A DNA stretch of 64,000 nt, from the NCBI RefSeq assembly GCF_048403405.1, contig NZ_CP183131.1; one strand, given 5' to 3'. This DNA comes from Escherichia coli (GTDB lineage Bacteria; Pseudomonadota; Gammaproteobacteria; Enterobacterales; Enterobacteriaceae). Numbering within the stretch: the first letter of the stretch is position 1; every line of letters begins with the position of its first letter. A program made the position numbers and the translations under genes. Shown in pieces: positions 9,939-61,680 of this stretch. The notes beneath the pieces are model-generated. The model was not told where the DNA came from and did not search any database. It worked only from the letters and a program-made list of their open reading frames with translations.

Positions 9939-10799
9939 ATGAAAAAGGCTTTAATCACCACCGTGGCTCTGGCTGTAGCAGCTCTATCTGGCTGTGCATC
10001 CACCAGCAGTTACGAACCCACAGCGTACAAAACCAATCACAGTCGCGCTTACAACATCGCGGAGGCCGGTGGCCTGGTAACAGGCATCCAAGACGCTTCT
10101 GTTCCGCGTGACAAGCTGGAGCGTCTGACCGACACCAAAACGTTTGGGGCAGCCTACGTGCTGTCTGGCTACATGTCCCCTCAGCTCGGAATGACCGACT
10201 GGCAAGGTGGCTTGGTCAACCTTGCGAACTGGGCTATCGGCCCCAAACAGCATGGCGCTCGCAATAGCTTGATCGCTTGGATGCCTGCTAACGAAGCAGT
10301 TTCACCGGCAGACGCTCAGGCCAAATTTCTTTCACATGTGAAAGTTTCCATTGAGTCAGCGCTGACTGATTTGGGTGCCAATTTCACGCTTCTGTATGAC
10401 AAAGATGGTCGCCTAACCTATCAGTTCTACAAGAATGAATGGGGTTGCCCGACGTGGGTGAACGGACAAAGTAAGGTAGCTGACATGTGTTCCGTTAAGG
10501 TGAAAATCGTGGAGCCTCGCCTAGGGTCAGCTCCTAATTTTGTCTCTGGCGTTCAAGGTACAGCGTATGCCTTCACATCAGGCCATGAGACCGCATACAA
10601 CTTTGTGAATGTCGGTAATGGGGCAGCAAGCCATGCTCCTCAGCAAGCGATCTACGCAGCTATTAGCAAACAGCTACCAGCTTGGGCCTACCTCTACCTT
10701 GCTCCAAAATCGGTTGAGCTGGATAATGGCGAAAAAGTTGCTTTCCCTTACCTTCTTGATCAGGGAAAAGCAGAGTTATTTGTTTACCCAGAAGCGTAA
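9939..10799 (+). CDS. lipoprotein (lipobox LSGC), function unknown
   Basis: MKKALITTVALAVAALSGCAS signal peptide. Confidence 0.65.
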   Translation: MKKALITTVALAVAALSGCASTSSYEPTAYKTNHSRAYNIAEAGGLVTGIQDASVPRDKLERLTDTKTFGAAYVLSGYMSPQLGMTDWQGGLVNLANWAIGPKQHGARNSLIAWMPANEAVSPADAQAKFLSHVKVSIESALTDLGANFTLLYDKDGRLTYQFYKNEWGCPTWVNGQSKVADMCSVKVKIVEPRLGSAPNFVSGVQGTAYAFTSGHETAYNFVNVGNGAASHAPQQAIYAAISKQLPAWAYLYLAPKSVELDNGEKVAFPYLLDQGKAELFVYPEA

Positions 10800-10811
10800 T
10801 CAATCTACATG

Positions 10812-10838
10812 AGAAAGGGGCCGAAAGGCCCCTTTTTT
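10812..10838. terminator. bidirectional terminator hairpin (GGGGCCGAAAGGCCCC) between lipoprotein gene and traN
   Basis: A-run / hairpin / T-run shared by convergent genes. Confidence 0.7.
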
Positions 10839-13648
10839 TATCCACCACCACCAGTTGGCGCGCCTGTTTGAGGGTCTATGCTGTTTGTCGCCTCTTTTCG
10901 CTTCGCGTCAATATCAATCCCTTCCAACCGCTCCAACGCCCTTTCCTGAGCATTCTTCCGCGTCCCGTCAATATTGAAGTCATTCCCTGCTCCAGTCAGC
11001 GAGTCGAGATTTATTGAGGCCGGATCAGGGAATTTACCGTTCTGCTGTAATATCCCAAGCCACTCATCCAAATTAATTTTGCTCCAATCAATTTCGGCAA
11101 TTTTATCTAGTGGAATCCCTTCACACTGAGGATTTTTGGGGTCTCCAAAGTTCTGCCCCAATTGAGGGCGAACCTGTTCTTGTATAATACGAGAGAGCGG
11201 AGAATTGAAGCAGCAATACGCTTCTCTTTTTTCAATACAAGCGCCCAACACCTTAGATTTACAATAAGAGCCTACATAGGTGCAATTCTTGAGCGCTCTT
11301 TTGGCGTTCATAGTGAACTCTTCTTCCTCGCACTTATAAATCATCTGGATCATCACCATCGCAACGACATAGACGGTATATATCGTCATGGCAGTGCTAA
11401 GCCATGTTGTCGCAGTCTCCATCATTGCTTCGGCAGCTTGTTCAGATGCTGCGGCAGCCGCCTGCTCTGTTGCTGCATCTTGGCCTGCTGATTTCATGAC
11501 ATCCATCATCACTTCTTTGACTTGCTCTTTGAGCTGGTCAATGAGTTGATCAACAAACTGCTCTACAGGCTGGAAGAACGAATCAACAGCACCTGAAACG
11601 TTCTCTATATAACTTGTGAACGGTTTTGTGACTTCTGTCCACCCTTGAAGGGCAGGTTCCCTAAGTACCTGATAAGCACCTTTAAGCGCATTACCATCAG
11701 TCAGCCCCATCACTGCGCCATCGAGCTTTGGAACGGCCATTATTAGGTTCAGATAATCGGCAAGAGATATATTGGTTGGCTTTTCACAGCAATCAGAAAC
11801 TCCCCCAACAGCTATCTTGCATTCGCCAGCTTCCCCTGCAAAAGCAGAGCAAATAACGTTTTCATCCCCGGTAGGATTGTCATCCCCATCTTGGCCTGTG
11901 CAGCTCATATCCTGCGTCATGAATTGGGCTGCATTGAGCAACGCAGTAGCGCGAGCAAAATCAGTGCTTTGTGTTTTGGTCAAATCAAGGCAGTCATCTC
12001 CCATGCAGCGTATAGGCCCACCGCACTGGTACTCAGTTTCCTTTTCCAAGGTCGGAACAGAAACATCTGTACCACAGTCATAAGTATCCTCGTGGACGTA
12101 GCACGTACCAGAACTTCCCTGAGCACCATCAACACATTTGGAACTGATGAAGCCGCACTGAGGGTTTTCTTCATATTTCTGACAGCTATCGAGATTCCCG
12201 CCCGTGTTTACCGGACAGTGCGTTTCACCTTGAGGGTCTGTCCAGCAGTCCATTTGCCCCTTATAAAAGTCATAGTCAGCTTTAACTCGAACCTTTTTGC
12301 ATAGTTTTGGAATACCAGGCAAAGGTGACGGCTTGAGTTGAGATTCGCAAACTTTGATCCCATTGATGACTGTGCAGCCCGTAGCATCAGTCGGGTCATC
12401 TATACATGTGATCTCGCCTTCCGCAAAACCATCTACAACCCCTTTGGCTGAATCCATGCAGCTCTGTGGAGCCCACTCATCCTTGGTAATGGCTTTTGAT
12501 GGGTCATAGCGTAGCTTTATGCGGCCAAAACCCTCACCTGCGCCAGTTACTGAAACGCGGATCTTAAACGTAACAACATCACCATCTTTCACATTCTTGA
12601 AATAGGGAGTGACATCAATATTAGGGTTTCGCTCCCAACTTGTTGACAATTCACATCGGCCAGCCGTTTCTGGAGGGAAATTGCCGTCAGGGCCGGACCA
12701 TACTTTAGTTTCCTGACCTGATTTACCAACCCAAACTTGCATGTAGTCATCCCACTTGGCGTACTCAAGAGTTGCAGACACTATGGCGTCTGGATTACTG
12801 ACTTGGACCCGCGTGTATTCCTCATAAATCGAACAGTTGCCACTCCAGTAGTCGTTACCAACTCGGCCAATCCACAACTCAGTACAGCCTTCTCCACAAG
12901 ATTTGAGGTTATATGGACCATCATAGTGCTTCACCACAGAGGCATCGTAGTCATGGACAACCTCACAGTCCGCGCTTTGATCTACAACACGCTGACACCG
13001 TTCATACTCTGGAATGTGGGCGTTGATAGTATTCTGATTGATGGTTGTTTCGGCAGAACAATCCCCAAAGCCACCTGCGATGAGGTCCATATCCTCATAG
13101 GTCTTTTTGCTTAGATTTAGTACAGGGTCATTACTGAAATCAGGGCGTGATCGATTAGAGGCATCGAGAAGAACCTTGTATGCCGCACCAGAGATTGATG
13201 GATTAGCACTATTGGCATCACTCCACAGCGACCCTTTTGCATTATTCCCCACGCTGTCCATGTCATCGCCAGAGTCGTAAATGCCTTGCAGACCGCCCAC
13301 ATCAGGTTTATTGGCATCAGGGAAGTAATAACTATCAGGTTTATTGTTGGTCCCGCTCGTTCCGGGGAATAGATCATTGACATTAATCTGACTCCCCCCG
13401 TTCATTTGGAATTGACCGTCTTTCAACGTCGGCATAGAGATTGTGCCATCTTGCACAGTCCCCGAGCTCGACTTGAATGAGTTTGAGAGGTTTTGTCCGA
13501 AAGCCTGGGCCTCTTTACCCACCGCTGTGATGTCCTGGTCTTGGCTACCGTTAGCGTAGGAATGTATCGGCAGCGCAGACATGGTTACTGTCAACAGCGA
13601 GGCCACAGCTTTCATAAAGTAATTATGACTTCGCATTGTGTTCTCCAT
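10838..13648 (-). CDS. traN: TraN-like mating-pair stabilisation outer-membrane protein
   Basis: 936 aa, signal peptide, very cysteine-rich C-terminal half; order traW-traU-traN. Confidence 0.8.
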   Translation of the reverse strand: MENTMRSHNYFMKAVASLLTVTMSALPIHSYANGSQDQDITAVGKEAQAFGQNLSNSFKSSSGTVQDGTISMPTLKDGQFQMNGGSQINVNDLFPGTSGTNNKPDSYYFPDANKPDVGGLQGIYDSGDDMDSVGNNAKGSLWSDANSANPSISGAAYKVLLDASNRSRPDFSNDPVLNLSKKTYEDMDLIAGGFGDCSAETTINQNTINAHIPEYERCQRVVDQSADCEVVHDYDASVVKHYDGPYNLKSCGEGCTELWIGRVGNDYWSGNCSIYEEYTRVQVSNPDAIVSATLEYAKWDDYMQVWVGKSGQETKVWSGPDGNFPPETAGRCELSTSWERNPNIDVTPYFKNVKDGDVVTFKIRVSVTGAGEGFGRIKLRYDPSKAITKDEWAPQSCMDSAKGVVDGFAEGEITCIDDPTDATGCTVINGIKVCESQLKPSPLPGIPKLCKKVRVKADYDFYKGQMDCWTDPQGETHCPVNTGGNLDSCQKYEENPQCGFISSKCVDGAQGSSGTCYVHEDTYDCGTDVSVPTLEKETEYQCGGPIRCMGDDCLDLTKTQSTDFARATALLNAAQFMTQDMSCTGQDGDDNPTGDENVICSAFAGEAGECKIAVGGVSDCCEKPTNISLADYLNLIMAVPKLDGAVMGLTDGNALKGAYQVLREPALQGWTEVTKPFTSYIENVSGAVDSFFQPVEQFVDQLIDQLKEQVKEVMMDVMKSAGQDAATEQAAAAASEQAAEAMMETATTWLSTAMTIYTVYVVAMVMIQMIYKCEEEEFTMNAKRALKNCTYVGSYCKSKVLGACIEKREAYCCFNSPLSRIIQEQVRPQLGQNFGDPKNPQCEGIPLDKIAEIDWSKINLDEWLGILQQNGKFPDPASINLDSLTGAGNDFNIDGTRKNAQERALERLEGIDIDAKRKEATNSIDPQTGAPTGGGG

Positions 13649-13751: not shown

Positions 13752-14759
13752 TCAATTGTTACAGCAATCATTCCATCGCCAGATGGTGTAAATAGGGTCT
13801 TGCCCAATTGCCGGTATAGTTCGCGCCAGACCCCACGTAAGAGTGGATTCGCCAATTACGTGAGATGAGTTTGTCTCTGGAACCGGATGCAATAGCGTGA
13901 ATTTGTACTGCGTTTTGGGTAGTGTTGGGCTAATAACACCTCTACACATAGCCTCAGAACCCATTGTCTTCCACGCTAACCCCCGGCGATGCAAAGCAGC
14001 CAGAACCCTTGTGCTAAGAAGACTGCTATCGCGGATAACACCTTTTCCACCATTCTGGTTGCCACTAAATGGATACAGGGTGCCCCATGAACCAGCACAC
14101 CAGAAAAGCTGTTTTAAAGGTTTTCCAGCGGTTGATGAGACAGCATCAGCAGTACACGCAGCCGCCGCAATTGGGTTTGCTACTGCCGCCGCCTCTGGAT
14201 TGGTAAAAAAAGCGAGCTCATCATTGTTCCAGGTCGGGTCGAGCTCCGACATGTACATGATGTCGAGATCCATATACCCATCAGCATTACAGGTCTGCTT
14301 AATAAATAAATCGAGCATCACCAACAGAGGAAACGCATAGTAGTGATAGTGCATAAAAGAACCATCACCACCATCCATGTCTCCCATGCCATGATGCCCT
14401 TGGTTAGTCCTATCAAACGGGAACCTGACACCATTCAAGACAGATGAGCAGCCAGGCACTCTCTGAAATTCAACAAGCCGTGCTGGCTCCCACATAGAAG
14501 TGGTGACTCCAGGCCGAGGGACCCCTAGATTATCCTCGCACATACACAGAGGGTTGCTTACGGCTTCACTCGGGAATGATCCGCCTCCACCACTTATAGG
14601 AACCCCTGCTACTTTGATGGGAAAAATACAGCTCCAGCAGATGTCAGTAATCAGTTTTCCGCCGATTACTTCCGCATTCTGGCACCCAGGGTCAGCCGAT
14701 ACCGAACGAACCCAAAAGACCGCGCTAACGGCAATGACCCGTAGAATTTTTTGCATCAT
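13752..14759 (-). CDS. traU: TraU-like T4SS pilus assembly protein
   Basis: Start set at ATG overlapping the upstream TGA (ATGA); signal peptide MMQKILRVIAVSAVFWVRSVSA; order in tra operon. Confidence 0.8.
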   Translation of the reverse strand: MMQKILRVIAVSAVFWVRSVSADPGCQNAEVIGGKLITDICWSCIFPIKVAGVPISGGGGSFPSEAVSNPLCMCEDNLGVPRPGVTTSMWEPARLVEFQRVPGCSSVLNGVRFPFDRTNQGHHGMGDMDGGDGSFMHYHYYAFPLLVMLDLFIKQTCNADGYMDLDIMYMSELDPTWNNDELAFFTNPEAAAVANPIAAAACTADAVSSTAGKPLKQLFWCAGSWGTLYPFSGNQNGGKGVIRDSSLLSTRVLAALHRRGLAWKTMGSEAMCRGVISPTLPKTQYKFTLLHPVPETNSSHVIGESTLTWGLARTIPAIGQDPIYTIWRWNDCCNN

Positions 14760-15427
14760 GGTAAGGCCTTTACGTAATTCAAGTGTTTCTCCATGACAGC
14801 AGGCTTCCCGTGATAGAAACCTTGTTGCCATGACAGTCCAAGTAATTTGGCGCTCTCCCCCAATGGGAAGCTCTCCACCTGCTCAGCAATGAGCTGTATG
14901 CCTTTTCGGCGGCAGTGGAGGATGGCCGAGTAGTCTTCAAGCGACCGCAGTCTTCTCGCGTCAAACTTGCAATAGTGCCAGTCATAACGACTCAGGCGCT
15001 CCAGCGAAGAGTTTTTGTCTCCATAGTCATCCAGCGCCAGCTCAACCCCTATTTCGGTAAGAGCCTCCCATCTCAATGCGAGAGAGGCATCCTGAATGCC
15101 CTCGGTAATCTCGATGACAAGCCGTGATGAGTGATTCTTAGCAATGTCGCGGACAACCCTCCACCACGCTTTGAAAATGACGTCTGATTGCAAAGTATGT
15201 TCAGAGACATTCAGAAAAAGAGCTGGGTACAGATCCAAGCAATAATGAAGGTTGTCCTGAATGAACCGTGCCATCTCCATATCCACCAGCCCCCAATAAG
15301 GAGGTGATGACAGAGAGGATGGTGTAAGAACCCGGCCTTCGTCGTACCAACGAGCCAGTACCTCAGCAGCGACAAACGAACCTGTGCCGACGTCTTTAAT
15401 TGGTTGGAAAGCCGGGGCAAAAATCAT
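14756..15427 (-). CDS. stand-alone EAL-domain protein (putative c-di-GMP phosphodiesterase or binder)
   Basis: EAL-type motifs AAEVLARW, LVIEITE, LALDDYG, HYCKFD, QQGFYHGKP; start overlaps traW stop and stop overlaps traU start. Confidence 0.75.
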   Translation of the reverse strand: MIFAPAFQPIKDVGTGSFVAAEVLARWYDEGRVLTPSSLSSPPYWGLVDMEMARFIQDNLHYCLDLYPALFLNVSEHTLQSDVIFKAWWRVVRDIAKNHSSRLVIEITEGIQDASLALRWEALTEIGVELALDDYGDKNSSLERLSRYDWHYCKFDARRLRSLEDYSAILHCRRKGIQLIAEQVESFPLGESAKLLGLSWQQGFYHGKPAVMEKHLNYVKALP

Positions 15428-16689
15428 TCACCGCCCTCCTCAGCAAGTTCGCGGACAACAAACTTCTTGCCTCTGGCAGTAATGACGCTCGGTGTGTGCT
15501 CCAGCTCGAACCGGGTAATCAGATCTGGCGTCAGCAGATATACCGGCGCGTCAAAGTTGTCGGTGACACTCTTGTAGGAATCCCAGCCTTTGTCTTTGTC
15601 GAACTCTGTGGCGATATAGGTAATCCGTTGTACGCCAGGTTCCTGCTTAATTTCAGGCAGCTTCTTGGCGAGCAGCTCCATTTGCTTTTTGTCCAGCGGG
15701 TCGAAAACTACGACCGCTTGGGTAAATGGCCGCGTTCCAGGCTTGCAAACTTCCTTCGGATCGCACAATGGGTTGATCACGTCACCCGCGTGAGCGAACA
15801 CAGTGCCATCCGGAGTGCTGATGTCACTGGTGATCATGACGCTAGGGTCAATTTCTCGTGTTCGAGATTTTGGCGCTCTGGGCAGCTCATTGAAATTCTG
15901 CTTGGTCCAGAAGCGCTCTATAGCCTGTTTCTTCTTCTCTTCCCAGTCGATATTGGCAAGGCGTTTCTTGGCAACATCAATAAGGTCTGGCTCACTGATT
16001 TTCTCCACCGGCCCCTTAACGCCGAGATCGCCTTTTTCTCCGTTATCCACTTCCCGAGCCAACCATACCGGGTCGGACAACCCGGAGACCTGGGCGACGA
16101 CGTTTGGTTGTTCGCCAGGCAGCGGCTCATCCTCCAGCATCACAATCGTGGGAACGGCTGTGATGTTGTACGTTTTGAACAACGTAGGGTTGATGATGAT
16201 GTTCGGCACTGGGTCTTTTTTGGCCGCGAGCGCCTGAATAGCTTTAACTCCCTGCCCCAAGTTCATTCCTTCCGGGATGCCACGGAACACAATTACAGAA
16301 TCAGGCTGGCCTGACACCGCCGTTAGGACGTCATCTAACCCCTGTTCGCCAAGAGACAACGAGGCGAAAACCAGTATCCGATGGTCAGAGTAGATACCCT
16401 TTTCAGCCTGTTTCCGGTGCATCTCCTTGAGCGTTGGGTTAGTAGTTTGGAGCTGCTTGAAAAATGCCTTGGCTTCGGCCTGAGCCTCGTCCATGTGTTG
16501 GTTTTGCAACAGAGATGGCATTTCCATCTTCTGGGCCTTTTGGGCAATTTGCTTTCCTTTCTCAATAAGCGCCTTATCCTGCTCTGTGAGCGGAGACTCT
16601 TGAGCGTATGCCCCGCCAGCCACAGAGAATATCAACGCCACCAGAACGCTCTTAGAACAGGGGATATGCGCGGCCAATGATCTGATCAT
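15424..16689 (-). CDS. traW: TraW-like T4SS protein (421 aa, signal peptide)
   Basis: Position between trhF and traU; N-terminal signal peptide; assignment by synteny. Confidence 0.65.
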   Translation of the reverse strand: MIRSLAAHIPCSKSVLVALIFSVAGGAYAQESPLTEQDKALIEKGKQIAQKAQKMEMPSLLQNQHMDEAQAEAKAFFKQLQTTNPTLKEMHRKQAEKGIYSDHRILVFASLSLGEQGLDDVLTAVSGQPDSVIVFRGIPEGMNLGQGVKAIQALAAKKDPVPNIIINPTLFKTYNITAVPTIVMLEDEPLPGEQPNVVAQVSGLSDPVWLAREVDNGEKGDLGVKGPVEKISEPDLIDVAKKRLANIDWEEKKKQAIERFWTKQNFNELPRAPKSRTREIDPSVMITSDISTPDGTVFAHAGDVINPLCDPKEVCKPGTRPFTQAVVVFDPLDKKQMELLAKKLPEIKQEPGVQRITYIATEFDKDKGWDSYKSVTDNFDAPVYLLTPDLITRFELEHTPSVITARGKKFVVRELAEEGGE

Positions 16690-17182
16690 TTTTCACAGTC
16701 CCCCAGTAACGTGAGTCGAAGCTGAATGGGCTTTTGCCCATAAACCAGTAGTTATTCTCTTTCAGCGTGGTCTTGCCGTAAAAGTGGCTCTCTGGCAGAT
16801 GTAGTTTCCCTGCGAGCTGGAGCCCCTCTCCGACGACATCACCATTGACGGTGATCTTCCACTTATCGTTGATCTCGACTTTATCCCCCGGCATACCGGT
16901 GAGGATTTTGACCATGCGAGTCCCGTCCTTGTAGAAAGGCTGCATGTTCTTGGCTTGGAAGGCGTAAACAGCTCCCCTCTCCAGAGTTTGGTCGTTCAGA
17001 TCAATGAGGAAGAAGGTGTAACCCGGCAGGCACTTCTCCTGTTGTGGATCAATGCCAATACGGTAGCGGCTGGCAAAGGCCGCACCAGCAGCCCAAAGAA
17101 CCAGTAGTGTCACACCGGCCTTAACCCCGAAGCGCTTCCAGGATTCCTTTTTGACGAAATACTTCTTGAGTGGAAAATTCAT
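16652..17182 (-). CDS. trhF: TraF/TrhF signal-peptidase-like (S26 family) T4SS protein
   Basis: 176 aa with N-terminal membrane anchor; synteny downstream of traC. Confidence 0.65.
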   Translation of the reverse strand: MNFPLKKYFVKKESWKRFGVKAGVTLLVLWAAGAAFASRYRIGIDPQQEKCLPGYTFFLIDLNDQTLERGAVYAFQAKNMQPFYKDGTRMVKILTGMPGDKVEINDKWKITVNGDVVGEGLQLAGKLHLPESHFYGKTTLKENNYWFMGKSPFSFDSRYWGTVKNDQIIGRAYPLF

Positions 17183-17496
17183 TTCAGCACCTCATCAGGG
17201 AGGTACACGTCACTTGGAGCACCGACGACAGCACTTGCGTCAAGGACCAAATAACCTGCGTCTTTCAACTTCAAAATTGCGTCATTGGTCTTGACCATCA
17301 GTCTTTCAACTTCCTCCTGAGAGGCACCAGCGGGATACGCCGACGCCACTTTAGCGAAGTCAACCACGACCACTGGCGGGGTTTGATTCAAACGCTGATG
17401 GATGCTTGCCGTTTGTTCGCTCATCACGTAGTAGCTACCGCCGAAGCCACCAGCGGCACCGAGAATGGCGGCGATTGCGATTGATTTAATGTCCAT
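17179..17496 (-). CDS. hypothetical exported protein (105 aa)
   Basis: AGGGAG RBS; hydrophobic N-terminus; ATGA overlap with trhF start. Confidence 0.55.
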   Translation of the reverse strand: MDIKSIAIAAILGAAGGFGGSYYVMSEQTASIHQRLNQTPPVVVVDFAKVASAYPAGASQEEVERLMVKTNDAILKLKDAGYLVLDASAVVGAPSDVYLPDEVLK

Positions 17497-17510: not shown

Positions 17511-19958
17511 TTATGCAGCCTGCTGACGGCTTCGCATCACGGCCTTGATTGCCTCAGGAATGCTCATGCCTTGTTTCACAAACTGGTCGATGGCGTTAAC
17601 GTCCACCGGATCGGTCGAATAAAGCAGCTTCTGGAAGTCGCCCACTATCAAGCGTCCGACGCCCATGCCGCTCTTCGATTTGATAAAGATTTCTGAGTAC
17701 ACGCCCTGGATGGTGTGTACCGTCTTGAGGGTGTGGAACCCGCCCTCTGAAAGGGTCAGACGACCGCTACGTTTAACAGATTCCACGGTTTCTTCGGTTT
17801 GGCCGAGCAAGTACATGCTGGCCGAGTTCTCCGCGATGGCGCGGCCCACTGCGTTCTCATAGAGGTCGTTGATGGACTGCGTTGCAATGACAACGGAGCC
17901 ACCGTACTTACGGAATTTGCGGTAGGCATGTTCCATGAAGACCGAGACCTCGCCCTCTTTGAGCAGGTCCCAGGCCTCATCCACGATGACGACTTTCTTG
18001 CGGTTACGTTCACCCAGGAATACTTCTTGCTGGATCTGGTAAATAAGCTGGAGCAGTACAACCTGACGCAAGTGCTTACGCCCTTGCAGTTCATCGAGCT
18101 CCAGTACAGTGAACTGGTTCTGGAAGCTGACGTTGTTCTTGCGAGAGAAGTATTTCCCGTAGCTACCTTTCGACGTAAAGGCGTAGAGCTGCTGACCAAT
18201 ATCCTTGAGGCGCTGGTCGTTTTCTTCTTCCAGACAGCGCTCAGCGATGTCGTCAACCTTCATCTCTTTACCTTTCTCTTCCCACAGGCGAGAAAGGACC
18301 TGTTTCAGCGCAGAGATTTGCCATTCATCCAGCAAGCCTTTGGCCGACGCCATTGCACAAACGAGGCTGACAATCGCGTCTTCTTCGTCCTCGTAGTTCT
18401 GTATGAGCTCGAACGGGTTGAGGCAGACGTGCGTTCCTTCTTCAAAGTGAACGAAGTCGCCATTGAGCATTTCCGACAGCTTCTGGTAGGACTTACCGGC
18501 ATCAATAACCCAGACCTGAGCACCCTCGGACAAGTAGGAAAAAATCAGTTCGTTGGTAAGGAACGATTTACCCGAGCCGGATTCGGCTGCGATCACCAGG
18601 TTTTTGTTGGTATTACTGTCGTGAAGAGACAGACTCATGAGCTGGCCGTTGCGGGAAATCAGCGCTGCATGATAGGTCCCGGTCCCCTTCCATTCCCCAA
18701 ACACCGGCAGGACCACAGCCGCCTGCTCGGTTGTCATGGTCTTGTAGCGGAATAGGTCTCGCACTGCATCCCGGTCTGTACAGAATGGCAGGCAGTTGAG
18801 GAACATCGGCAGAGCAACGAACTTATCCTCCATCAGCTCGAACCGAGATTCACGCCAGATGTTTCGTGCGGCCATCGCCGCCGCTTCAACACGTTCTTTG
18901 GTTGGAGCAAATAAAACCACCGAGTAGGTGATCTTGACTGGCTTAGCCCCCTCTTTCATGGACTCATAGAGAGTGTCGAAGCTCTCCTTTTTGTCCGCCA
19001 GCACCGGCACGAATTTGAGCATCGGCCCGTAGGCTTGGTTTACAGTGAACTGGCGTTTGCGCTCCAGAGTGTTTTTCGTGCTTTCTGCCTCAGGGAAAAA
19101 CACATTGGTCACAACCATGTAGTTTTCTTTGATGCTGGAGTTGCCGCCGCTGAGATCCCCGGCATAGGTCAACGCATCACCAAAGTAGAAAACGTCAGGC
19201 AGCTTTTTCGCTGACATGACTTTCGCGTGGTAGTCCCCCAGCCTGATGCCGTTCTTGCTGACTTCCACATCAGTGCCGTAATCGAAGATTTGCTCGCAGA
19301 TGGGCTTATCCATCTCCCAATCCACAGAGTCATGTCGCCATGAAGCATCCGGCCCCCAATTCAGGATGGTGCTCATGATCCGGATGTAGTTCACCGCCGT
19401 CATTGTGCGGGGACGCAGACCAACGGTTTGAAGCGATGATTCGACCTTCGTGCGAAGCTGTGCGAGCTGCTGGAGTTCGCTTTCAGTCGGGTTATTGTTC
19501 TTGATGGGGACTTTGCACGTAACGAACAGCTTGAGGTCTTGGATCAAGCCATTGTCGTAGATACCTTTGTTGGTCTTGGCAAATATGCGTTCTGTCGTGT
19601 GGTGCTGGAGGAAGTTAATCCGTTCCTTGATGACAGATGTCAGCAGCTCGTGACGGAAGCCATCACGCAACCCCATCATCCGGTACATCTCCTGATTGAT
19701 GTCCGGGGAGCGGAACAGAACAAACTGGAGCGTAGTCTTCGACGGGAACTCCTGATTCAGGAAACCGTTCATTCGCTCCTGAACTTTTTCATCGGCACCA
19801 CACAGGGGCTCACACATGAAACCAAAGCCTGCACTGTGGTCATCCATAAGGAAGACATGATCGTCTTCGTCATAGGCCAGGACAGGAATAATCCCGGCAG
19901 CTCGCAAGTGCTCCGGGATCAACGTTTCTTCGAGTTTCTTTTTGATGGTTACGATCAT
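17511..19958 (-). CDS. traC: TraC/VirB4-family T4SS ATPase
   Basis: 815 aa, Walker A AAESGSGKSF, Walker B-like VVIVDEAWD. Confidence 0.9.
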   Translation of the reverse strand: MIVTIKKKLEETLIPEHLRAAGIIPVLAYDEDDHVFLMDDHSAGFGFMCEPLCGADEKVQERMNGFLNQEFPSKTTLQFVLFRSPDINQEMYRMMGLRDGFRHELLTSVIKERINFLQHHTTERIFAKTNKGIYDNGLIQDLKLFVTCKVPIKNNNPTESELQQLAQLRTKVESSLQTVGLRPRTMTAVNYIRIMSTILNWGPDASWRHDSVDWEMDKPICEQIFDYGTDVEVSKNGIRLGDYHAKVMSAKKLPDVFYFGDALTYAGDLSGGNSSIKENYMVVTNVFFPEAESTKNTLERKRQFTVNQAYGPMLKFVPVLADKKESFDTLYESMKEGAKPVKITYSVVLFAPTKERVEAAAMAARNIWRESRFELMEDKFVALPMFLNCLPFCTDRDAVRDLFRYKTMTTEQAAVVLPVFGEWKGTGTYHAALISRNGQLMSLSLHDSNTNKNLVIAAESGSGKSFLTNELIFSYLSEGAQVWVIDAGKSYQKLSEMLNGDFVHFEEGTHVCLNPFELIQNYEDEEDAIVSLVCAMASAKGLLDEWQISALKQVLSRLWEEKGKEMKVDDIAERCLEEENDQRLKDIGQQLYAFTSKGSYGKYFSRKNNVSFQNQFTVLELDELQGRKHLRQVVLLQLIYQIQQEVFLGERNRKKVVIVDEAWDLLKEGEVSVFMEHAYRKFRKYGGSVVIATQSINDLYENAVGRAIAENSASMYLLGQTEETVESVKRSGRLTLSEGGFHTLKTVHTIQGVYSEIFIKSKSGMGVGRLIVGDFQKLLYSTDPVDVNAIDQFVKQGMSIPEAIKAVMRSRQQAA

Positions 19959-20662
19959 TCAACACTCTCCAACCATGATTTCAGGTTCTTCGGACGTCCT
20001 TTGCTGACACGACCATCCGGAGCAACCACGAACGGAACGCCCTCAATCCCAATGAAATGAGCTGTCAGCAGCGTTTGATCGTATTGGCCGGGGTCGCAGG
20101 TTTCTTTTGAAGGAAGGGAACCCAAGGTGTTGTTCATCAGCGCATCGAGCGCGTGGGTTTTGTCTTTCGCGCAGTACAAGTTCTTTGCCAAGCGGTTGGA
20201 CTCAGCACCCAGAGCAGGAATCACGATAAATTTAAAGGTGTAATCATCCACCAGCGATTTGGCATCACCCATGAGCTGATGGCAAACCGCGCATCTAGGA
20301 TCGACAAAGACCACCACCTCTTTGTCACCACGCCCCATCGAAACGGTGTTCAGCGTGTCCACATCCATGCCCATGCTCTTGAAGTGGATACGCTCCGCTA
20401 CATCCCTCATTTGGGACATCGTGTTGAGGGGCTTCTTGCTCCACAGGTCGTAGATTTGTCCTGAAATAACAAATCGCCCGTTTTCAGAGAGGAACATGAT
20501 CTGCCCATCACTTTGGACGGCTCGAACCCCTTTGATGGGTAGCTCTACGATGTCCTCTATCTTCGCCGCTCTGGGATCGGTGATTTCCAATTTCGATGAC
20601 GCATGAGCCGTGCCGGTAATAATCCCGAACACCATCAGCGCCCCGAGTAATTTTGTCCGCAT
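19955..20662 (-). CDS. dsbC: DsbC-like thiol:disulfide interchange protein
   Basis: Signal peptide; thioredoxin CxxC (DPRCAVCHQL); stop overlaps traC start. Confidence 0.8.
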   Translation of the reverse strand: MRTKLLGALMVFGIITGTAHASSKLEITDPRAAKIEDIVELPIKGVRAVQSDGQIMFLSENGRFVISGQIYDLWSKKPLNTMSQMRDVAERIHFKSMGMDVDTLNTVSMGRGDKEVVVFVDPRCAVCHQLMGDAKSLVDDYTFKFIVIPALGAESNRLAKNLYCAKDKTHALDALMNNTLGSLPSKETCDPGQYDQTLLTAHFIGIEGVPFVVAPDGRVSKGRPKNLKSWLESVE

Positions 20663-20738
20663 GTCTATCCCCTAAGATTGGATTACTGGATGCTGGGCAG
20701 TGTATCCGGGGGAGGGAAATAGACTCGCCTCTGTAATA

Positions 20739-20754
20739 GCCCAATTTGGACAAT
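20739..20754. promoter_or_regulatory. GCCCAWTTTGGRCA-type box ~77 bp upstream of dsbC start
   Basis: GCCCAATTTGGACAA preceded by CTGT. Confidence 0.45.
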
Positions 20755-20766
20755 TCCAGCGCGATA

Positions 20767-20796
20767 CAAAAAAAAGCCCGGTCTGAACCGGGCTTT
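20767..20796 (-). terminator. rho-independent terminator after the giant gene
   Basis: AAAGCCCGG...CCGGGCTTTTTTTT on minus strand. Confidence 0.7.
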
Positions 20797-20810: not shown

Positions 20811-23800
20811 TTAGTTCATGGTAACAGCTTCGGATTTGCCACCAGAGTCATCGACCCCAACCAGAGAGATGGTCGGCATCGTTTCATAGGTGCCCTTGCT
20901 GATAGTCACTCGATCAGAGCTGATGCTCTGCAACTCACCGGCAATGGTCCATTCGTAGGACTTCATGCGGCCATCGGTATCTTCGCAGTTCGCATAAACG
21001 ATCCACGACCCAACGGTCTCTCGTGAGCTCAGGCTACATGCAGGCAACTTGTTCTCTGCCACATTGATGTTCACCTCGCCCTCAGCTTCATGCCCCATTT
21101 CTGAGGTTATTTTCAGCTTGATGCTGTGCTCACCAGCGCCCAGAGTTGCTCTGCCGTAGTAACCGCTGCTTTCCAACGGCGTACCATCTACCGAGTAGAC
21201 GCGAGTCGAAATACGGTCGCGTGGGTGGCCGCCAGAAATGTACGGTCGCAACAGCACATCCAGAGGCTCACGCTCGTATTTGTTCGAGCCAGAGTATTGC
21301 AGGTCGATAGCATAGGGCTCTGCCTGGCCGATCTTGAGCGGTTGCTCGATCACGGTTTCATGGCCGCGAGCATCACGGACAGTCACCTTGATGTTGTAAT
21401 CGCCCGGCTCATTGATCACAAAGGACCGGACAATATCCTGCCGCTGATCCTGAATCACTGCGTCTTCCGGCAACTCCCACTCGTAGGTCGGTTCTTCCAG
21501 CTTGCCGTTGAAGGCAATTGGCCGCACTGACGCGGTGATCGTCGCAGGAGCCACGTCAGCGTTCTTCCTGACCTGCATTCCGAAGCTCGGCCATACATAC
21601 TGCCACACGCGGGAGCGTAGGCTATGCGAGGCTTCTGCACCCTGATCTCGGTATCCTTCGATCCAGGTGGTGTACTTCGTTTCTACAGTAGCCTGGTTGA
21701 GGTCAGTGTCCGAAGGCACGTACTCAGCAGTATCACCCTGCACAATTGAGCCATCAGGCAGCGTGAAGAACCCGTTCAGCTTCACGTCCATCCCACGGTA
21801 AGGCAGGCTGGTTTCGGCTTTGAACACATACTTCTTACCGGTCTCAATGACTCGCGGCCCTGTCACGTAAGGACGGGGGGCCTTCACTGCTCGGAAGTCA
21901 ACTGCCGTTTTCGCAACTTCATAGGCATAGCCGTCATCAGCCGGTGCAGTGGCAGAGCGCACACGAGCCCACAGGCGGTATCGGGTTTCTTCATCGCTCG
22001 AAAGCGTGATGCTATCCCCTGTCTGCGCGTAGGTTTTGCCACCGTCAGTAGACCACTCAACAATGGCATTGCCACCGGAGATTGGCTCATCGTTCAACGT
22101 CAGGTTCGCTGTGTACTTGCCTTCACTTCCGACAAACAACGTGGTCGGGCCGATAACAGCAATATCAGGTTTGTCGTAAGCGACAACACTGACCGCTTCG
22201 GTGTACTTTTCCGCACCTGAGTTGACGTTCACCACCTTGGCCCGAACCTGGTACTCCCCCTTGTCGAAGGTCTTCACAAGCTGATACTTGTATCGATCTT
22301 CTGGGATGAACTGCTCCCAGGTTTTACCGTCGTCCTTACTGGTTTCCCACACAACCTGGCCGGTAGCCCGGAGATCCTGACGGTCGTCCAAAGATAGCTT
22401 GAACACAGCAGTGAACGGAGCTTCACCAGACAACTTGCGAGCCTCCACGCCAGCACCGATGGCACCACCACGAAGCACTGTCAAGAAGGCAGGTCTGATA
22501 GACAACTCTGTGCGGTTGTAACCCTCAACAGGGCTTTCCAGAACAGCCTCAGCAGCGATACGGACGGAGGAAGTATCCACACCAGACAGGTCTACTGAGA
22601 ACTGAGCTTCACCGTTCGATGCTTCCGCATAATCAGTGAGCGCAACCGTCTCGTTGTAGGCCTTTTGCTGGATCAGGCGTACTTTCCACACCCCCATCGT
22701 GTTAGCGTCATAGTCACCATCAGGTTTGTACTGATCACGGATGAGAACCCTAACCGGCAATGCCTGGGTGTCAATCGCGGTATCACCTTTAACTTCAACG
22801 ATAGGACGGATACTGTCAGAAGGTGCAGAGATAGCCCGGTAGACAACCTCAGTCTTCACATCAGGCACCTTGTTGTAGGCCGCGTTCACCTTGTAGGTGG
22901 TCTCCTCCCACAACGCTCGCTCATCGGTATTGATGCGGCGATACACCTTATTGGTGGCACCCCATCCCGGAGTGAAGGTCTCAGACTCAAGAACATCAGA
23001 GTTGCGCGATATGGCAATATCCAGATCAGCTCGTTCAGAGTTGATAATGGCATCACCCAGGTAGTTACCTGTCATCGGCACCAAGTAGATGTTGTCTTTG
23101 AAGTTGTAGTCGGAGGCTAGTTCAACGGTCGGAGCTGGTGGGTCAACCGCTTCGACATTGAAAGTCTCGTCGTTCAACGTCACCCGAGTGCCGTTACGGG
23201 TGAAAATACTTACCCGCCACCCCAGAGGGTGATCACCGTTCTCGGCCAGGGAACCTGACAACGAAGGAGATTCCGATAACGGGTCTTGGACCAGTCCATC
23301 GGGGATCTGCTGCCACTCGAACAGACAGGTGCGGCTTGCACTGCCAACAGCTTTGTTCGCGGCCTCGTTTTTCGCACGGTCAGCACTGAGAGTGATTGAA
23401 CAATCAGGACCTTTGCTCTGCTTGAAGTTCACATCAAAGTCTTCAATGACGCGATTCACCTGAGCAATGTCATCAATCGGGGTGTAACCAACAGAGCCAT
23501 AGGCAGTAGTTACCGTCAGGTTCTGAGAGCCAGACCCAACTTTTACCTTGGAACCGTCACCACTGAACAGGTACAGGCTGTATTCGACAGGTTGTTCACC
23601 AATGCTCACAGCCTGCCCCACCAGCCCGGCAACTTTCATCCCGTTGTTGTCCTGCGTAGTTTGTTCAGCCTCATCCGGAGTTCTGTCCCATTGGAGCAAA
23701 CACACCGGGTCACGAATTGGGTCTGCGGCCATAGCCACATCCTCTTTCGTGGTGAACCGGCAAGGCACACCCGACTCTGGCAGGGCATAGATTTTCACCG

Positions 23801-26342
23801 GGTCAATAACCTGGCGAATTGTCCATGATTCAGCCGAGAGCTTGGCCGTCCCTTTCCAGGTATTGATGTCCACAACCAAGATGGGTGAGTTCGGCGCGGA
23901 GGTCATGACAAGAAGACTGGAAGAGCCGACCACATCAGGAACAGCCGGTTTAACCGGAATGCTCAAACGACCACCTGACGCACCGAAATCATGTTGGCTC
24001 ATGATCCCCATTGTCTGGCCCGGCTCGATACGCACCCCATTCACCACCAGCGGCACTTTCGCATCAGAACGGAGGGTCGCAAACACGTCGTATGAACCTG
24101 TCACGACAGCACCATCACTGAGCGTCAGCGGCTTGGTCTCGATGATCCGCTTGCCATCTGCATGAACAAATTCATGAGTGACAGCGGGGACCATAACCTT
24201 GCCATCCATCCCATCCGCCAGCATCACCTGACGCGGTTTGTACTCGAAGCCAACCGCCTTTTGAACCGCGTTGCCTTGTGCGTCCTCACCGGAAACAGTC
24301 AGCGTGTAAGATTCCCCTTCCTTCAAAGACGGGAACATTACCGGGTACTCAAGGCGGAATCGACCTTTCGACTCCTCACGCCAAGACAACTGCACCTTGT
24401 CATCGGCTGGGCCTCCGACGAGGGCAATAGAGGTCAGCTTAGGACTCGGGTCGGCAGTATCAGTCAAGGTGATTACAACATCATCCAAAGACTGGATTGG
24501 TGCTCCATCACTGATCGATACGGTTAGTGTCGGCGCTGAATTATCTATGCTCATAGCATATTGGGAGCCAGTGAATACCTGCTTAACCTCATTACCGAAA
24601 GCATCTTTAGCTACGAGAGATATGCCGGTATATGTGCCCTCTGACAGATTCTCAGCAGAAAATGTGAAAAACCAATCATTTGTGCTACTACGAAGAACTT
24701 CAGTACGAGACAACGGACGTTCTTCGCCAGTCGAGGTTATCGCAGACGCACTTGAGTTGTTAGAAATAACCCACTGGTTAACACCCCAACCGTCAAATGA
24801 ATCAGGCTCACGGAAATGAGCTTTAAAAATCCGCCCATTTCGTTCTAACCCAGCAATTTCAGGAGGGTTAAGGTCATAGCAGAACGTTGCCCCAATCCGA
24901 TCAGACGGAAGTTCAGGCTTCCCTTCCGGTCGAGACCAATATCCAGGCCATGAACATGAGCGCCCACTGAACGATATATCCGTATCCACTTCTGCATAAG
25001 AAGCATTTGCCGGAATTTTAGTAGTAGGCAACCAAGATCCCCATAACTCCTGAGCGTAAGGTCTCGGCTCAACATGAAATCTCAGTTTTTTATAATGGTT
25101 AACTGAGCTCATATTAATGGTTTCACCGCGGACCCACTGACCATCATCCCTAAGATATTCAACATACTTACCGATGGGAGCCAAGCTAACCGATGGATCA
25201 GCTTTCACACTGACGGATGTATTACCAAGAGAGTTCATAACCCAGTCGTAAATAATAAACGACTTAGTTTTTGTCCCATGTTGCTGGAATACATCAGCTT
25301 GCGTCTGCCGATAATCATATGTACCGTCTTCGGCAATGATATTGCCTTCAATACAGTTTTTATAATCACACCAGTTACCGCTTTGAGCACCGTAAGGTGA
25401 AGAAGGATAGGAGTTTGTTTTGGGTATCCGGTAGAGCACCCTGTAGGTATCGGAATAAATGGTCATTCCGTTCTGATAAGGCGCAAAACCTGATAGGGCC
25501 TGACCATTAACCTTAAAAGTTGAGGCCTGCGGGTTCTTAGGGTCATACACTGCTACTGGCTCAGGATTCTCTCCAGACTTTGCACCTACTGAATCCCAAG
25601 CAATAGGATAGGCTATTGACCCTTTGTTCCCTGCTTTATCCAGGGCCTCGAAATGAAGCGTATATAGATCCTCCCCATTAGGGAACACAGTGCTCCAGTT
25701 CAACAACTGGCCTTGGCCGTTGGCGTAATTAACCGAGACAACAGGACTCCTCTTGCCTTTGCTATCTACAGCATACGCCTGTATAGAGGAAACCGAAGAA
25801 CCGGCATCAGATGCAGACACATCTATACCTGAAAATCGGTTAGGACCTCGCAGTAGCGTTCCATCAGAAAGCGCCCGGTTCCATTCCCCTTTTACTGTCA
25901 CGTTTGCCAAACTTGGCGCTGTCGTATCGACTTGAAGCGGGTATTCATCAGTCTGAACGGAACTTCCGTCTGACGCCAGTATTTCGGCCCTTAGTTTGTA
26001 GACTCCCTCGGAAGGAGCCGGTAGTTGAAGTTCCGCACCATAGTAGGATTTTCCACCCACTGTGATGCGATCAGTAGCCCCAAGAAGGTGGCTGGTCGCT
26101 GTCGAAACCACTGTTCCATCCGACCGAATCACCGAAATCTTTACCTTTCGGTCGATACCGGCACTCAAGGCAAACGAGATATTGCCCGTTGGGTTGGCAT
26201 AGTTGGCATTCGGAGTCAGAGACCGTTGCGTACCATCTGGAGCCTTAAAGGTGTATTCCAGCAGCTCTGCATGAGCAGCACCAGCGGTAAGAACCGCCAG
26301 AGCCCCAAGCATCGCCGGAATTTTAGGCTTGAAATTGATCAT
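20811..26342 (-). CDS. giant secreted protein (~1,840 aa), probably built of repeated beta-rich / Ig-like modules; putative surface adhesin
   Basis: Single uninterrupted ORF; start set at ATG with GGAGA RBS giving signal peptide MINFKPKIPAMLGALAVLTAGAAHA; T/S/G/V/D-rich repetitive composition; own terminators on both sides. Confidence 0.7.
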   Translation of the reverse strand: MINFKPKIPAMLGALAVLTAGAAHAELLEYTFKAPDGTQRSLTPNANYANPTGNISFALSAGIDRKVKISVIRSDGTVVSTATSHLLGATDRITVGGKSYYGAELQLPAPSEGVYKLRAEILASDGSSVQTDEYPLQVDTTAPSLANVTVKGEWNRALSDGTLLRGPNRFSGIDVSASDAGSSVSSIQAYAVDSKGKRSPVVSVNYANGQGQLLNWSTVFPNGEDLYTLHFEALDKAGNKGSIAYPIAWDSVGAKSGENPEPVAVYDPKNPQASTFKVNGQALSGFAPYQNGMTIYSDTYRVLYRIPKTNSYPSSPYGAQSGNWCDYKNCIEGNIIAEDGTYDYRQTQADVFQQHGTKTKSFIIYDWVMNSLGNTSVSVKADPSVSLAPIGKYVEYLRDDGQWVRGETINMSSVNHYKKLRFHVEPRPYAQELWGSWLPTTKIPANASYAEVDTDISFSGRSCSWPGYWSRPEGKPELPSDRIGATFCYDLNPPEIAGLERNGRIFKAHFREPDSFDGWGVNQWVISNNSSASAITSTGEERPLSRTEVLRSSTNDWFFTFSAENLSEGTYTGISLVAKDAFGNEVKQVFTGSQYAMSIDNSAPTLTVSISDGAPIQSLDDVVITLTDTADPSPKLTSIALVGGPADDKVQLSWREESKGRFRLEYPVMFPSLKEGESYTLTVSGEDAQGNAVQKAVGFEYKPRQVMLADGMDGKVMVPAVTHEFVHADGKRIIETKPLTLSDGAVVTGSYDVFATLRSDAKVPLVVNGVRIEPGQTMGIMSQHDFGASGGRLSIPVKPAVPDVVGSSSLLVMTSAPNSPILVVDINTWKGTAKLSAESWTIRQVIDPVKIYALPESGVPCRFTTKEDVAMAADPIRDPVCLLQWDRTPDEAEQTTQDNNGMKVAGLVGQAVSIGEQPVEYSLYLFSGDGSKVKVGSGSQNLTVTTAYGSVGYTPIDDIAQVNRVIEDFDVNFKQSKGPDCSITLSADRAKNEAANKAVGSASRTCLFEWQQIPDGLVQDPLSESPSLSGSLAENGDHPLGWRVSIFTRNGTRVTLNDETFNVEAVDPPAPTVELASDYNFKDNIYLVPMTGNYLGDAIINSERADLDIAISRNSDVLESETFTPGWGATNKVYRRINTDERALWEETTYKVNAAYNKVPDVKTEVVYRAISAPSDSIRPIVEVKGDTAIDTQALPVRVLIRDQYKPDGDYDANTMGVWKVRLIQQKAYNETVALTDYAEASNGEAQFSVDLSGVDTSSVRIAAEAVLESPVEGYNRTELSIRPAFLTVLRGGAIGAGVEARKLSGEAPFTAVFKLSLDDRQDLRATGQVVWETSKDDGKTWEQFIPEDRYKYQLVKTFDKGEYQVRAKVVNVNSGAEKYTEAVSVVAYDKPDIAVIGPTTLFVGSEGKYTANLTLNDEPISGGNAIVEWSTDGGKTYAQTGDSITLSSDEETRYRLWARVRSATAPADDGYAYEVAKTAVDFRAVKAPRPYVTGPRVIETGKKYVFKAETSLPYRGMDVKLNGFFTLPDGSIVQGDTAEYVPSDTDLNQATVETKYTTWIEGYRDQGAEASHSLRSRVWQYVWPSFGMQVRKNADVAPATITASVRPIAFNGKLEEPTYEWELPEDAVIQDQRQDIVRSFVINEPGDYNIKVTVRDARGHETVIEQPLKIGQAEPYAIDLQYSGSNKYEREPLDVLLRPYISGGHPRDRISTRVYSVDGTPLESSGYYGRATLGAGEHSIKLKITSEMGHEAEGEVNINVAENKLPACSLSSRETVGSWIVYANCEDTDGRMKSYEWTIAGELQSISSDRVTISKGTYETMPTISLVGVDDSGGKSEAVTMN

Positions 26343-26481
26343 CGCATTCTCCATTCGTTTTGAGTTACAAGAACCCAATGCTGGAGGTTACGGGAGGGAG
26401 TGCATAAACATGGGCTGTGGAAGTGCCCTTTTTGAGCAAATAAGGAAATAGTTGGAATTTGTTATGACTGGACTTTTTGCC

Positions 26482-52855: not shown

Positions 52856-53167
52856 TCAGCGCAATTGATTTGCTGCTCCAAGCCCATTCGCCAATAACTG
52901 CATCGCATCGTTGAACAGCGCGGAGCCCCGTTCCGGTGTGAGCAATTCCGGCATATCTTCTCGCGGCCAAGTACCGGCTACTTGAATGAGCAAACTGGCA
53001 GCCCAGTGGATCTGCTTTTCTTCACTTTCATCGGCCAGAGTGCATACGACGGGGAAACCGTACTTACGCCCCCAGCGACTCACCTCTTTGAACGATACCA
53101 GCTCAGGCTTTTGCAAATCCCGGCTGTAGGCCTCAGCTATCATGTGGTTCAGTTCTTTAGCGTCCAT
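52856..53167 (-). CDS. hypothetical protein (103 aa)
   Basis: ORF with downstream terminator hairpin; last backbone gene before resistance island. Confidence 0.5.
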   Translation of the reverse strand: MDAKELNHMIAEAYSRDLQKPELVSFKEVSRWGRKYGFPVVCTLADESEEKQIHWAASLLIQVAGTWPREDMPELLTPERGSALFNDAMQLLANGLGAANQLR

Positions 53168-53473
53168 TTATCCCACTCTATTGTAAACAAGACATTTTTA
53201 TCTTTTATATTCAATGGCTTATTTTCCTGCTAATTGGTAATACCATGAAAAATACCATGCTCAGAAAAGGCTTAACAATATTTTGAAAAATTGCCTACTG
53301 AGCGCTGCCGCACAGCTCCATAGGCCGCTTTCCTGGCTTTGCTTCCAGATGTATGCTATTCTGCTCCTGCAGCTAATGGATCACCGCAAACAGGTTACTC
53401 GCCTGGGGATTCCCTTTCGACCCGAGCATCCGTATGAGACTCATGCTCGATTATTATTATTATAGAAGCCCCC

Positions 53474-54289: not shown

Positions 54290-54349
54290 CTGCACATTCG
54301 GGATATTTCTCTATATTCGCGCTTCATCAGAAAACTGAAGGAACCTCCA

Positions 54350-55989: not shown

Positions 55990-56255
55990 ATATCAAGCGA
56001 CTTCTCCTATCCCCTGGGAACACATCAATCTCACCGGAGAATATCGCTGGCCAAAGCCTTAGCGTAGGATTCCGCCCCTTCCCGCAAACGACCCCAAACA
56101 GGAAACGCAGCTGAAACGGGAAGCTCAACACCCACTGACGCATGGGTTGTTCAGGCAGTACTTCATCAACCAGCAAGGCGGCACTTTCGGCCATCCGCCG
56201 CGCCCCACAGCTCGGGCAGAAACCGCGACGCTTACAGCTGAAAGCGACCAGGTGC

Positions 56256-57453
<1,198 letters not shown>

Positions 57454-57919
57454 GCCTGTGGGAGGAAAATAAAGTGTCATCCTAACTACAGGACCCTGCA
57501 ACGTAGCAATTCCTGCAAAAATCCATTTAAAACAATGACTTATTTCAATTCTGCCATCTGCAAGCGTTTTGTGGGGATGGAGGCCGGAATCATTAAAGTA
57601 TCATCCTAATTTTCGCTCAACCTTGGAAAATGCTGAGAATCGTAAAAATAAAGTTTCATCCTTTCCGCTACTAGTTCAAGGCTTTCTTCCGGCCGCCGGC
57701 AACAACGCTGCTTGGCTGAGGCGATCCACTTGCGCTACCGCTCACTGATCAGATCGAACTTGAACTCGACGAGCAGCCAACCATCAGGCCGAGCGTGATC
57801 GCCAAAAAAAACGGATCATGCGAAATCCTTCGTTGAGTTTGGCGCGGGTTTTAGCAAATCAGCTGGCCCGCGATCCGGTTGAGAGTGATCCGAAGCGGTC
57901 CTTGACGACCGGCACAAAT

Positions 57920-59536: not shown

Positions 59537-59569
59537 CACACAGCCATTCGGCTCAACAGAACCCTGCCT

Positions 59570-61587: not shown

Positions 61588-61680
61588 CAAAGCCAAACAT
61601 CCCTGCGATGATCGACCTCTGGGCGTTTGGTCGTGAGCCCGCCACCCTCGCGCTACGCTTTGCGCAGGCGTCGAAGGCGA

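Follow-up and report, generated by a model that had tools for sequence, protein, structure and literature searches.

A stand-alone EAL-domain gene between traW and traU of an IncC plasmid: a predicted c-di-GMP phosphodiesterase encoded in the AcaCD-activated transfer operon

Genes for the turnover of cyclic diguanylate (c-di-GMP) are found on two sister families of conjugative elements. In the SXT/R391 family of ICEs (integrative and conjugative elements) they encode the diguanylate cyclases DgcK and DgcL, which, as the citing papers present Bordeleau et al. 2010 (PMC3915882; PMC4542580), were proposed to aid dissemination by manipulating host c-di-GMP. In the IncA/C family the gene is vcrx082, so named in the operon map of PMC4542580. 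DgcK and DgcL stand for synthesis and occupy variable cargo hotspots of some ICEs, with no overlap-coupling to tra genes, whereas hydrolysis is predicted for vcrx082, which lies in the core transfer operon. In the literature vcrx082 has no assigned function and is often dropped from the names of operons, recent IncC papers and reviews writing simply 'traWU'; in the literature searched, we found no paper testing its phosphodiesterase activity or a role in conjugation. Here we analysed a stretch of 64,000 nucleotides from Escherichia coli (contig NZ_CP183131.1; hereafter the window), in which a gene for a stand-alone EAL-domain protein is located between the transfer genes traW and traU. This gene is vcrx082, a known and annotated IncA/C backbone gene, and as a feature it is not novel. 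The present analysis adds a sharper case for selection on catalysis and for a deep evolutionary tie of the gene to the type IV secretion system (T4SS). We lean, by a small measure, towards a product that acts as a cytoplasmic c-di-GMP phosphodiesterase, controlled by AcaCD and made with the mating-pore proteins, which would lower c-di-GMP in transfer-competent donors. This functional idea is reasonable and is strengthened by the conservation analysis, making the gene a lead of moderate interest rather than a discovery.

The whole window is collinear and identical with the reverse complement of the Klebsiella pneumoniae IncC plasmid NZ_CP023724.1 (83352-147351), which lists the gene product under 'EAL domain-containing protein' (WP_001337754.1), the name elsewhere being 'diguanylate phosphodiesterase'; many IncC plasmid records show 100% identity in the region. 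A megablast search with the 3-kb traW-EAL-traU segment returned 838 plasmid records, 791 of them matching over nearly the full length and 345 at 99% identity or above, the main hosts being Klebsiella, Escherichia, Salmonella, Citrobacter, Providencia, Vibrio, and Proteus. Nearly all of these records are typed as conjugative, and those that were opened are typed as IncC, MOBH, and MPF_F. Comparison with vcrx082 of pVCR94 revealed no difference, with the same 672 bp, position, and overlaps (traW ends at 58693, vcrx082 spans 58690-59361, and traU starts at 59358). IncC plasmids rank among the major vehicles of resistance genes, those for carbapenemases included, in Enterobacterales and Vibrio. 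Should their transfer operon indeed supply an active phosphodiesterase, and only to donors competent for transfer, conjugation would be linked to the host's messenger for biofilm and motility. Such a link would give a handle on when and where IncC plasmids spread, and would contrast informatively with the SXT/R391 ICEs, in which diguanylate cyclases are found in its stead.

Analysis of the protein sequence indicated that the product is a complete stand-alone EAL domain, with a match to Pfam EAL (PF00563) far beyond chance (E=1.2e-22, residues 3-209 on model positions 13-236 of 236). The first-pass annotation had described a stand-alone EAL protein of 223 residues on the basis of its motifs, and each of these was found, namely EVL (E22), EITE (106-109), DDYG (133-136), KFD (154-156), and QGFYHGKP (202-209), together with the full set of catalytic residues. 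In the profile alignment, ten residues (E22, R26, N73, E106, E109, D133, D134, K154, E182, and Q202) align to the canonical catalytic, metal, and substrate positions. The catalytic Asn is N73, located in an NVS motif and invariant; H77, which a pairwise HMMER alignment to 3s83 had placed at this position, was rejected as a gap-placement artefact, the family profile against YahA, RocR, and DosP giving N73. The profile search against the PDB returned 44 EAL-domain matches, including YahA/PdeL (3e-20), RocR (1.4e-19), DosP, PA3825, and TBD1265. The AlphaFold2 model has a predicted local distance difference test score (pLDDT) of 91.9 and a predicted template modelling score (pTM) of 0.88 and shows alternating strand-helix elements, and Foldseek matched it with a probability of 1.00 and TMq values of 0.70-0.80 to RocR, TBD1265, PdeA, YahA, and MucR, mostly c-di-GMP phosphodiesterases. 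In comparison to the characterised EAL phosphodiesterases (YahA/PdeL, RocR, TBD1265, PA3825, and PdeA), the window protein has the same barrel fold and all ten residues align, whereas it shares only 19-26% identity with them, has no sensor or regulatory domain, is encoded inside a T4SS operon, and has an activity that is so far predicted only.

Across the 32 syntenic orthologues, some as distant as 27% identity, none of the ten canonical residues varies, and 69 of the 77 family representatives (taken at 50% identity) have all ten. The open reading frame (ORF), for which the first-pass annotation had raised the prospect of decay across relatives, is thereby found mostly intact, with degeneration in a few members of the slot. 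The gene is under purifying selection, looser than that on traW and traU in most comparisons: the pairwise ratio of nonsynonymous to synonymous rates (dN/dS) is 0.11-0.25 against IncC type 2, Shewanella, IncA, Aeromonas, Edwardsiella, and a metagenomic relative, versus 0.02-0.07 for traW and traU where not saturated, the closest pair giving about 0.15 for all three genes. The GC content of the gene equals that of its neighbours. The synonymous rates (dS) themselves are uneven across window 13752-16689 when compared with the L013/L002 loci, being 0.17 for traW, 0.19 for the EAL gene, and 1.72 for traU against the Shewanella element, and 0.43 for traW, 1.09 for the EAL gene, and saturated for traU against IncA. 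This unevenness suggests recombination breakpoints near the borders of the EAL gene.

To survey the locus, a TraU profile was scanned against one genome per species, giving 29 loci, which were then searched by tblastn with TrhF, TraW, the EAL protein, TraU, and TraN of the window. The EAL gene lies between traW and traU in 16 of the 29, down to 27% identity, in Providencia, Shewanella, Edwardsiella, Citrobacter, Vibrio, Paraglaciecola, Alcanivorax, a Rhodospirillaceae metagenome-assembled genome (MAG), Azomonas, Halomonas, and Vreelandella. The same slot is held in all 16 of these loci, in four plasmid lineages, and in nine metagenomic contigs chosen from across the family; identity of the EAL protein to that of IncC is 73% in an IncA-type replicon, 65% in an Aeromonas plasmid, 53% in Edwardsiella plasmids, 39% in a Vibrio pAQU-like plasmid, and 47% and 39% in metagenomic contigs. 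A 4-nt overlap usually accompanies the slot in the IncA, Aeromonas, Edwardsiella, Vibrio, and metagenomic relatives. A profile search of 1.84 billion representative proteins returned 81 with E<=1e-30 (50%-identity representatives), almost all stand-alone and of 215-260 amino acids, ordinary multidomain EAL proteins dominating below that level, and four members sampled across the score range are all located between traW and traU. NCBIfam holds no curated model near its cut-off for this family. Judged by sequence and context, the traW-traU EAL proteins form a T4SS-linked EAL clade. In a neighbour-joining TraU tree, the EAL-positive Halomonas and Vreelandella loci lie outside the main EAL-positive clade, and the tree is too weak to tell a single ancient gain followed by losses from repeated acquisition. 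A 153-amino-acid variant (P0012, a cluster of 104 sequences) was considered as a frameshifted lineage and rejected; it ends 13 nt before its contig end and is an assembly or insertion sequence (IS) junction artefact, and so provides no evidence of decay.

The ATGA overlaps of the gene with the traW stop and the traU start, which the first-pass annotation had reported with no mention of strand, were read directly in the sequence on the minus strand. The EAL ATG (15427-15425) overlaps the traW TGA (15426-15424), and this 4-nt overlap recurs in 13 of 14 resolved orthologous loci. At the other end, the EAL TGA (14758-14756) overlaps the first traU ATG (14759-14757) by 4 nt and the second (14756-14754, the RefSeq start) by 1 nt. 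The GAGGAGG upstream of the EAL ATG, which has purine-rich equivalents in most orthologous loci, would provide the gene with its own ribosome-binding site (Table 1). Within the AcaCD-activated operon of seven genes, dsbC-traC-orf-trhF-traW-EAL-traU (PMC4207636; PMC4542580), the EAL gene takes sixth place, and in pVCR94 a single operon was predicted from dsbC (vcrx077) to traU (vcrx083), with an AcaCD ChIP-exo peak upstream of dsbC (PMC4207636). Published RNA-seq values for vcrx082 are 401 in the wild type, 1 in the acaCD deletion mutant, and 2085 upon acaDC induction, both contrasts being significant (PMC4207636). On these pVCR94 data, transcription of the gene requires the master activator AcaCD. 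The ChIP-exo motif of pVCR94 lies at 53360-53388, with the dsbC ATG at 53455 (PMC4207636), and the positional offset places a probable AcaCD box in the dsbC promoter of the window. A terminator scan of the same strand inside the operon found only two weak candidates with 5-bp stems, both in traU.

The EAL protein has no hydrophobic segment or signal peptide, and should therefore be cytoplasmic; TraW and TraU both have signal peptides. The annotation of the rest of the plasmid shows no GGDEF or PilZ gene, and the c-di-GMP serving as substrate would therefore come from the host. In the mechanism that we propose, overlap-coupling to traW and traU would cause the enzyme to be made in step with the periplasmic mating-pore assembly proteins. 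Within the donor sub-population that switches on transfer, it would lower c-di-GMP, either globally or near the secretion system, and the lower level may shift host physiology (matrix, adhesion, motility, or another c-di-GMP-sensitive step) toward a state favouring mating. The protein would thus serve as an accessory modulator rather than as a structural part of the T4SS, and second-messenger control may in this way be hard-wired into the conjugation machinery.

Several observations weigh against this reading and are considered together with the alternatives on which they bear. The EAL domain is about 20 residues shorter than typical EALs, with shorter loops and no N-terminal helix. Loop 6, which is important for the activity of RocR-type enzymes, here reads DDYG-DKN-SS, not the canonical DDFG-(T/A)GY-SS; its length, the two Asp residues, the aromatic residue, the Gly, and SS..RL are kept, T/A-G-Y is replaced by D-K-N, and the three central positions vary freely across the family. 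The replacement may leave activity as it is, abolish it, or retune it. Such a loop could change specificity, and a description as versatile cyclic dinucleotide phosphodiesterases is attached to certain stand-alone EAL proteins of the PDB (6ifq), as would suit an enzyme acting on a different cyclic nucleotide, such as the product of a cyclic-oligonucleotide-based anti-phage signalling system (CBASS), in plasmid anti-defence. We consider this highly improbable, given that the c-di-GMP- and metal-contacting residues of RocR and YahA are all conserved, and that the operon position points to expression with donor-side mating-pore genes, not to placement as an early-entry (leading-region) gene. No PADLOC family matches the protein and PHROGs yields only generic EAL-containing families, and a defence role was rejected.

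The EAL gene is also missing from a number of related systems. SXT/R391 elements have traWUN in the published operon map (PMC4542580), on which this absence rests, there being no identifiable SXT/R391 ICE among the genome-scan loci; in Rts1, orf216 (traW) is followed directly by orf217 (traU) (PMC10838148). Direct checks found no EAL gene in the Citrobacter MOBH plasmid pCTEL-2, where traW overlaps traU directly, or in IncHI1, where the order is trhF-trhW-trhU-trhN. By tblastn, 8 of the 29 scanned loci have traW adjacent to traU with no EAL gene (Photorhabdus, Pseudovibrio, three gammaproteobacterial MAGs, Pseudomonas duriflava, and an Enterobacterales MAG), and 5 have neither the EAL gene nor traW next to traU (four 'Candidatus Glomeribacter' and one Desulfobacca MAG). 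The suggestion that the best-known relatives have no EAL gene at this position holds only with respect to SXT/R391, Rts1, and IncHI, and not for IncC itself, of which it is a backbone gene, nor for IncA and the A/C-like plasmids examined; likewise, the comparison of traW-traU intervals that had been proposed separates SXT/R391 from IncA/C plasmids, which carry the gene. In the A/C-like scaffold of Photorhabdus caribbeanensis (L014 3917-4000), whose TraU is 93% identical to that of IncC, the gene has been lost, and an 84-bp spacer aligns to its last ~40 nt and the traU start context, beside intact traW, traU, and traN. The remnant and the intact neighbours in so close a relative mark this loss as a secondary deletion, and show that the EAL gene is not structurally indispensable. 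A structural T4SS component would be expected across MPF_F systems and in an envelope or ATPase role, whereas the EAL gene has the absences described and its product has no signal peptide or transmembrane segment. Given the absences in sister T4SS families and the Photorhabdus deletion, the gene is accessory and not a structural component of the MPF_F T4SS.

These absences would also be expected of a largely neutral passenger, an old insertion at a permissive site of the operon, kept mainly to deliver ribosomes to traU by translational coupling, with little or no effect on conjugation. The Shine-Dalgarno sequence of traU is weak (AAGG) and every junction overlaps, the EAL protein evolves faster than its neighbours (IncC versus IncA identity of 73%, compared with 94% for TraW and 87% for TraU), and reviews leave the gene out of operon names. 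We nevertheless judge this quite unlikely, since an ORF kept for coupling alone would not hold ten dispersed catalytic residues invariant down to 27% identity, and neither the dN/dS values nor a confidently folded, complete EAL barrel would be expected of it. In Photorhabdus, moreover, traU sits behind the short remnant with no ORF.

A last set of contrary observations concerns catalytically degenerate members. Three metagenomic proteins (P0061, P0097, and P0104; Table 1) have lost catalytic residues and still reside in the slot beside intact tra genes, keeping family-specific residues such as W150 and D49, and P0093 and P0105, considered here as protein sequences, are likewise short of catalytic residues. 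Catalysis is therefore not the sole reason for persistence of the ORF, which in these lineages could be kept by c-di-GMP binding, protein contact, or ribosome delivery to traU. The retention agrees with a local sensor or trigger, in which the EAL protein binds, and maybe hydrolyses, c-di-GMP and acts via protein contacts rather than on the global pool, either by gating T4SS assembly or activity or by a YdiV-like feedback on the FlhDC-like AcaCD. YdiV is an EAL-like anti-FlhD4C2 factor of Salmonella and E. coli in which the catalytic residues are missing and which has no action on c-di-GMP. It resembles the window protein in its EAL fold and small stand-alone form, and with AcaCD being a relative of FlhDC, and the plasmid encoding the FlhC-family regulator AcaC, a feedback loop analogous to that of YdiV and FlhD4C2 is conceivable. 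A sensor would further fit the presence of the 81-protein family in the traW-traU slot in every context examined, with no NCBIfam model at cut-off, the conservation of the family-specific, non-catalytic residues W45, D49, W150, and R144, and an in-frame read-through into traU in one MAG, which would tether a cytoplasmic EAL domain to membrane-anchored TraU. Even so, a sensor of this kind seems unlikely to us. The full catalytic set, for which a pure YdiV-like binder would have no use, is invariant in IncC and close relatives, including the window protein; the PDB profile matches at E<=1e-3 do not include YdiV and are headed by known phosphodiesterases; SXT/R391 elements have the homologous activator SetCD and no EAL gene; no partner of the EAL protein is known; and each fusion ORF is an isolated instance, one coming from a MAG. 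Only limited credence is likewise given to a broader version, in which this unnamed, dedicated T4SS-associated clade would form a local c-di-GMP-responsive checkpoint of conjugation, as a trigger enzyme or receptor contacting a T4SS or AcaCD component and not as a bulk phosphodiesterase, although such a role would explain the retention of catalytically dead versions in the slot.

Table 1. Coordinates of the EAL gene, its junctions, neighbouring features, and degenerate homologues (window positions unless a locus is named)
Feature	Position	Strand	Details
EAL-domain gene	14756..15427	minus	223 aa, 672 bp, ATG start, TGA stop; vcrx082 / WP_001337754.1
ATGA overlap, traW stop / EAL start	15424..15427	minus	plus strand reads 'tcat'
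ATGATG junction, EAL stop / traU start	14754..14759	minus	string CCATGATGCAA, context CC ATG ATG CAA
Shine-Dalgarno-like GAGGAGG	15435..15441	minus	inside traW 3' end, 7 nt upstream of EAL ATG; junction gctgaggagggcggtgaATG
traU	13752..14759	minus	335 aa, signal peptide, last operon gene
traW	15424..16689	minus	TrbC-family F-type pilus assembly protein, 421 aa, signal peptide
trhF	16652..17182	minus	S26 signal peptidase family, 38-nt overlap with traW
105-aa ORF	17179..17496	minus	unknown function, at position named vcrx079 in pVCR94
traC	17511..19958	minus	VirB4-type ATPase
dsbC	19955..20662	minus	first gene of the EAL-containing operon
Probable AcaCD box, dsbC promoter	20729..20757	minus	from pVCR94 positional offset; covers GGAATTGTCCAAATTGGGCTATTACAGAG, contains GTCCAAATTGGGC
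Strong intrinsic-terminator-like hairpin	20773..20796	minus	10-bp stem then T-run
Ig-like/Big_3 domain protein gene	20811-26378	minus	1855 aa, TTG start, between traA and dsbC
traN	10838..13636	minus	downstream, own AcaCD-dependent promoter, outside the EAL operon
P0061, metagenomic	L052 3001-3699		in traW-traU slot; catalytic residues lost: EISS, MNDYG, FGRHIE
P0097, metagenomic	L050 315-983		in traW-traU slot; seven of ten catalytic residues lost
P0104, metagenomic	L051 422-1075		contig ends before traU; nine of ten catalytic residues lost

Upstream of the operon, the hairpin listed in Table 1 closes the gene for the Ig-like protein and delimits the dsbC transcription unit at its start. The pVCR94 counterpart of the Ig-like gene, vcrx076, is itself strongly AcaCD-dependent, with published RNA-seq values of 380, 3, and 2495 under the same three conditions.

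Fused and interrupted copies of the EAL gene were also observed. In the Halomonas ventosae plasmid pNRS2HaP12 (L031 2049-3974), traW continues into the EAL gene in the same frame, without an intervening stop codon (FVIQELVRGVMMPKAKVAFQPIV), and the sequence as deposited predicts a fusion of TraW and EAL in one ORF; in a related Halomonas locus (L038) the stops are normal. In a Paraglaciecola MAG contig (L016 3188-4945), the EAL ORF runs in frame into the traU signal peptide and mature TraU. As read from this single MAG, in which an assembly error is possible, the fusion would leave the EAL domain cytoplasmic, with the signal sequence of TraU as its anchor. IS elements are found at or in the EAL gene of three IncC-type records (L043, L044, and L045, in NZ_KX832927.1, CP144326.1, and NZ_CP021956.1) and of hit H4. 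They comprise IS1B between traW and the EAL gene, ISKpn18 between the EAL gene and traU, clipping the traU start, and ISEc52 inside the EAL gene, leaving a 169-amino-acid C-terminal remnant. Such insertions are probably polar on traU.

Elsewhere in the window, a 286-amino-acid ORF on the plus strand (9939-10799) is convergent with traN and bears only the label 'hypothetical' in the matching record; in size and position it agrees with the surface-exclusion gene sfx of IncC plasmids (PMC11493245). The region at about 53000-64000 is a resistance island with sul2, aph(3'')-Ib, aph(6)-Id, blaTEM-1, aac(3)-IId, ISCfr1, and IS26 in the annotation of NZ_CP023724.1, and is ordinary IncC cargo.

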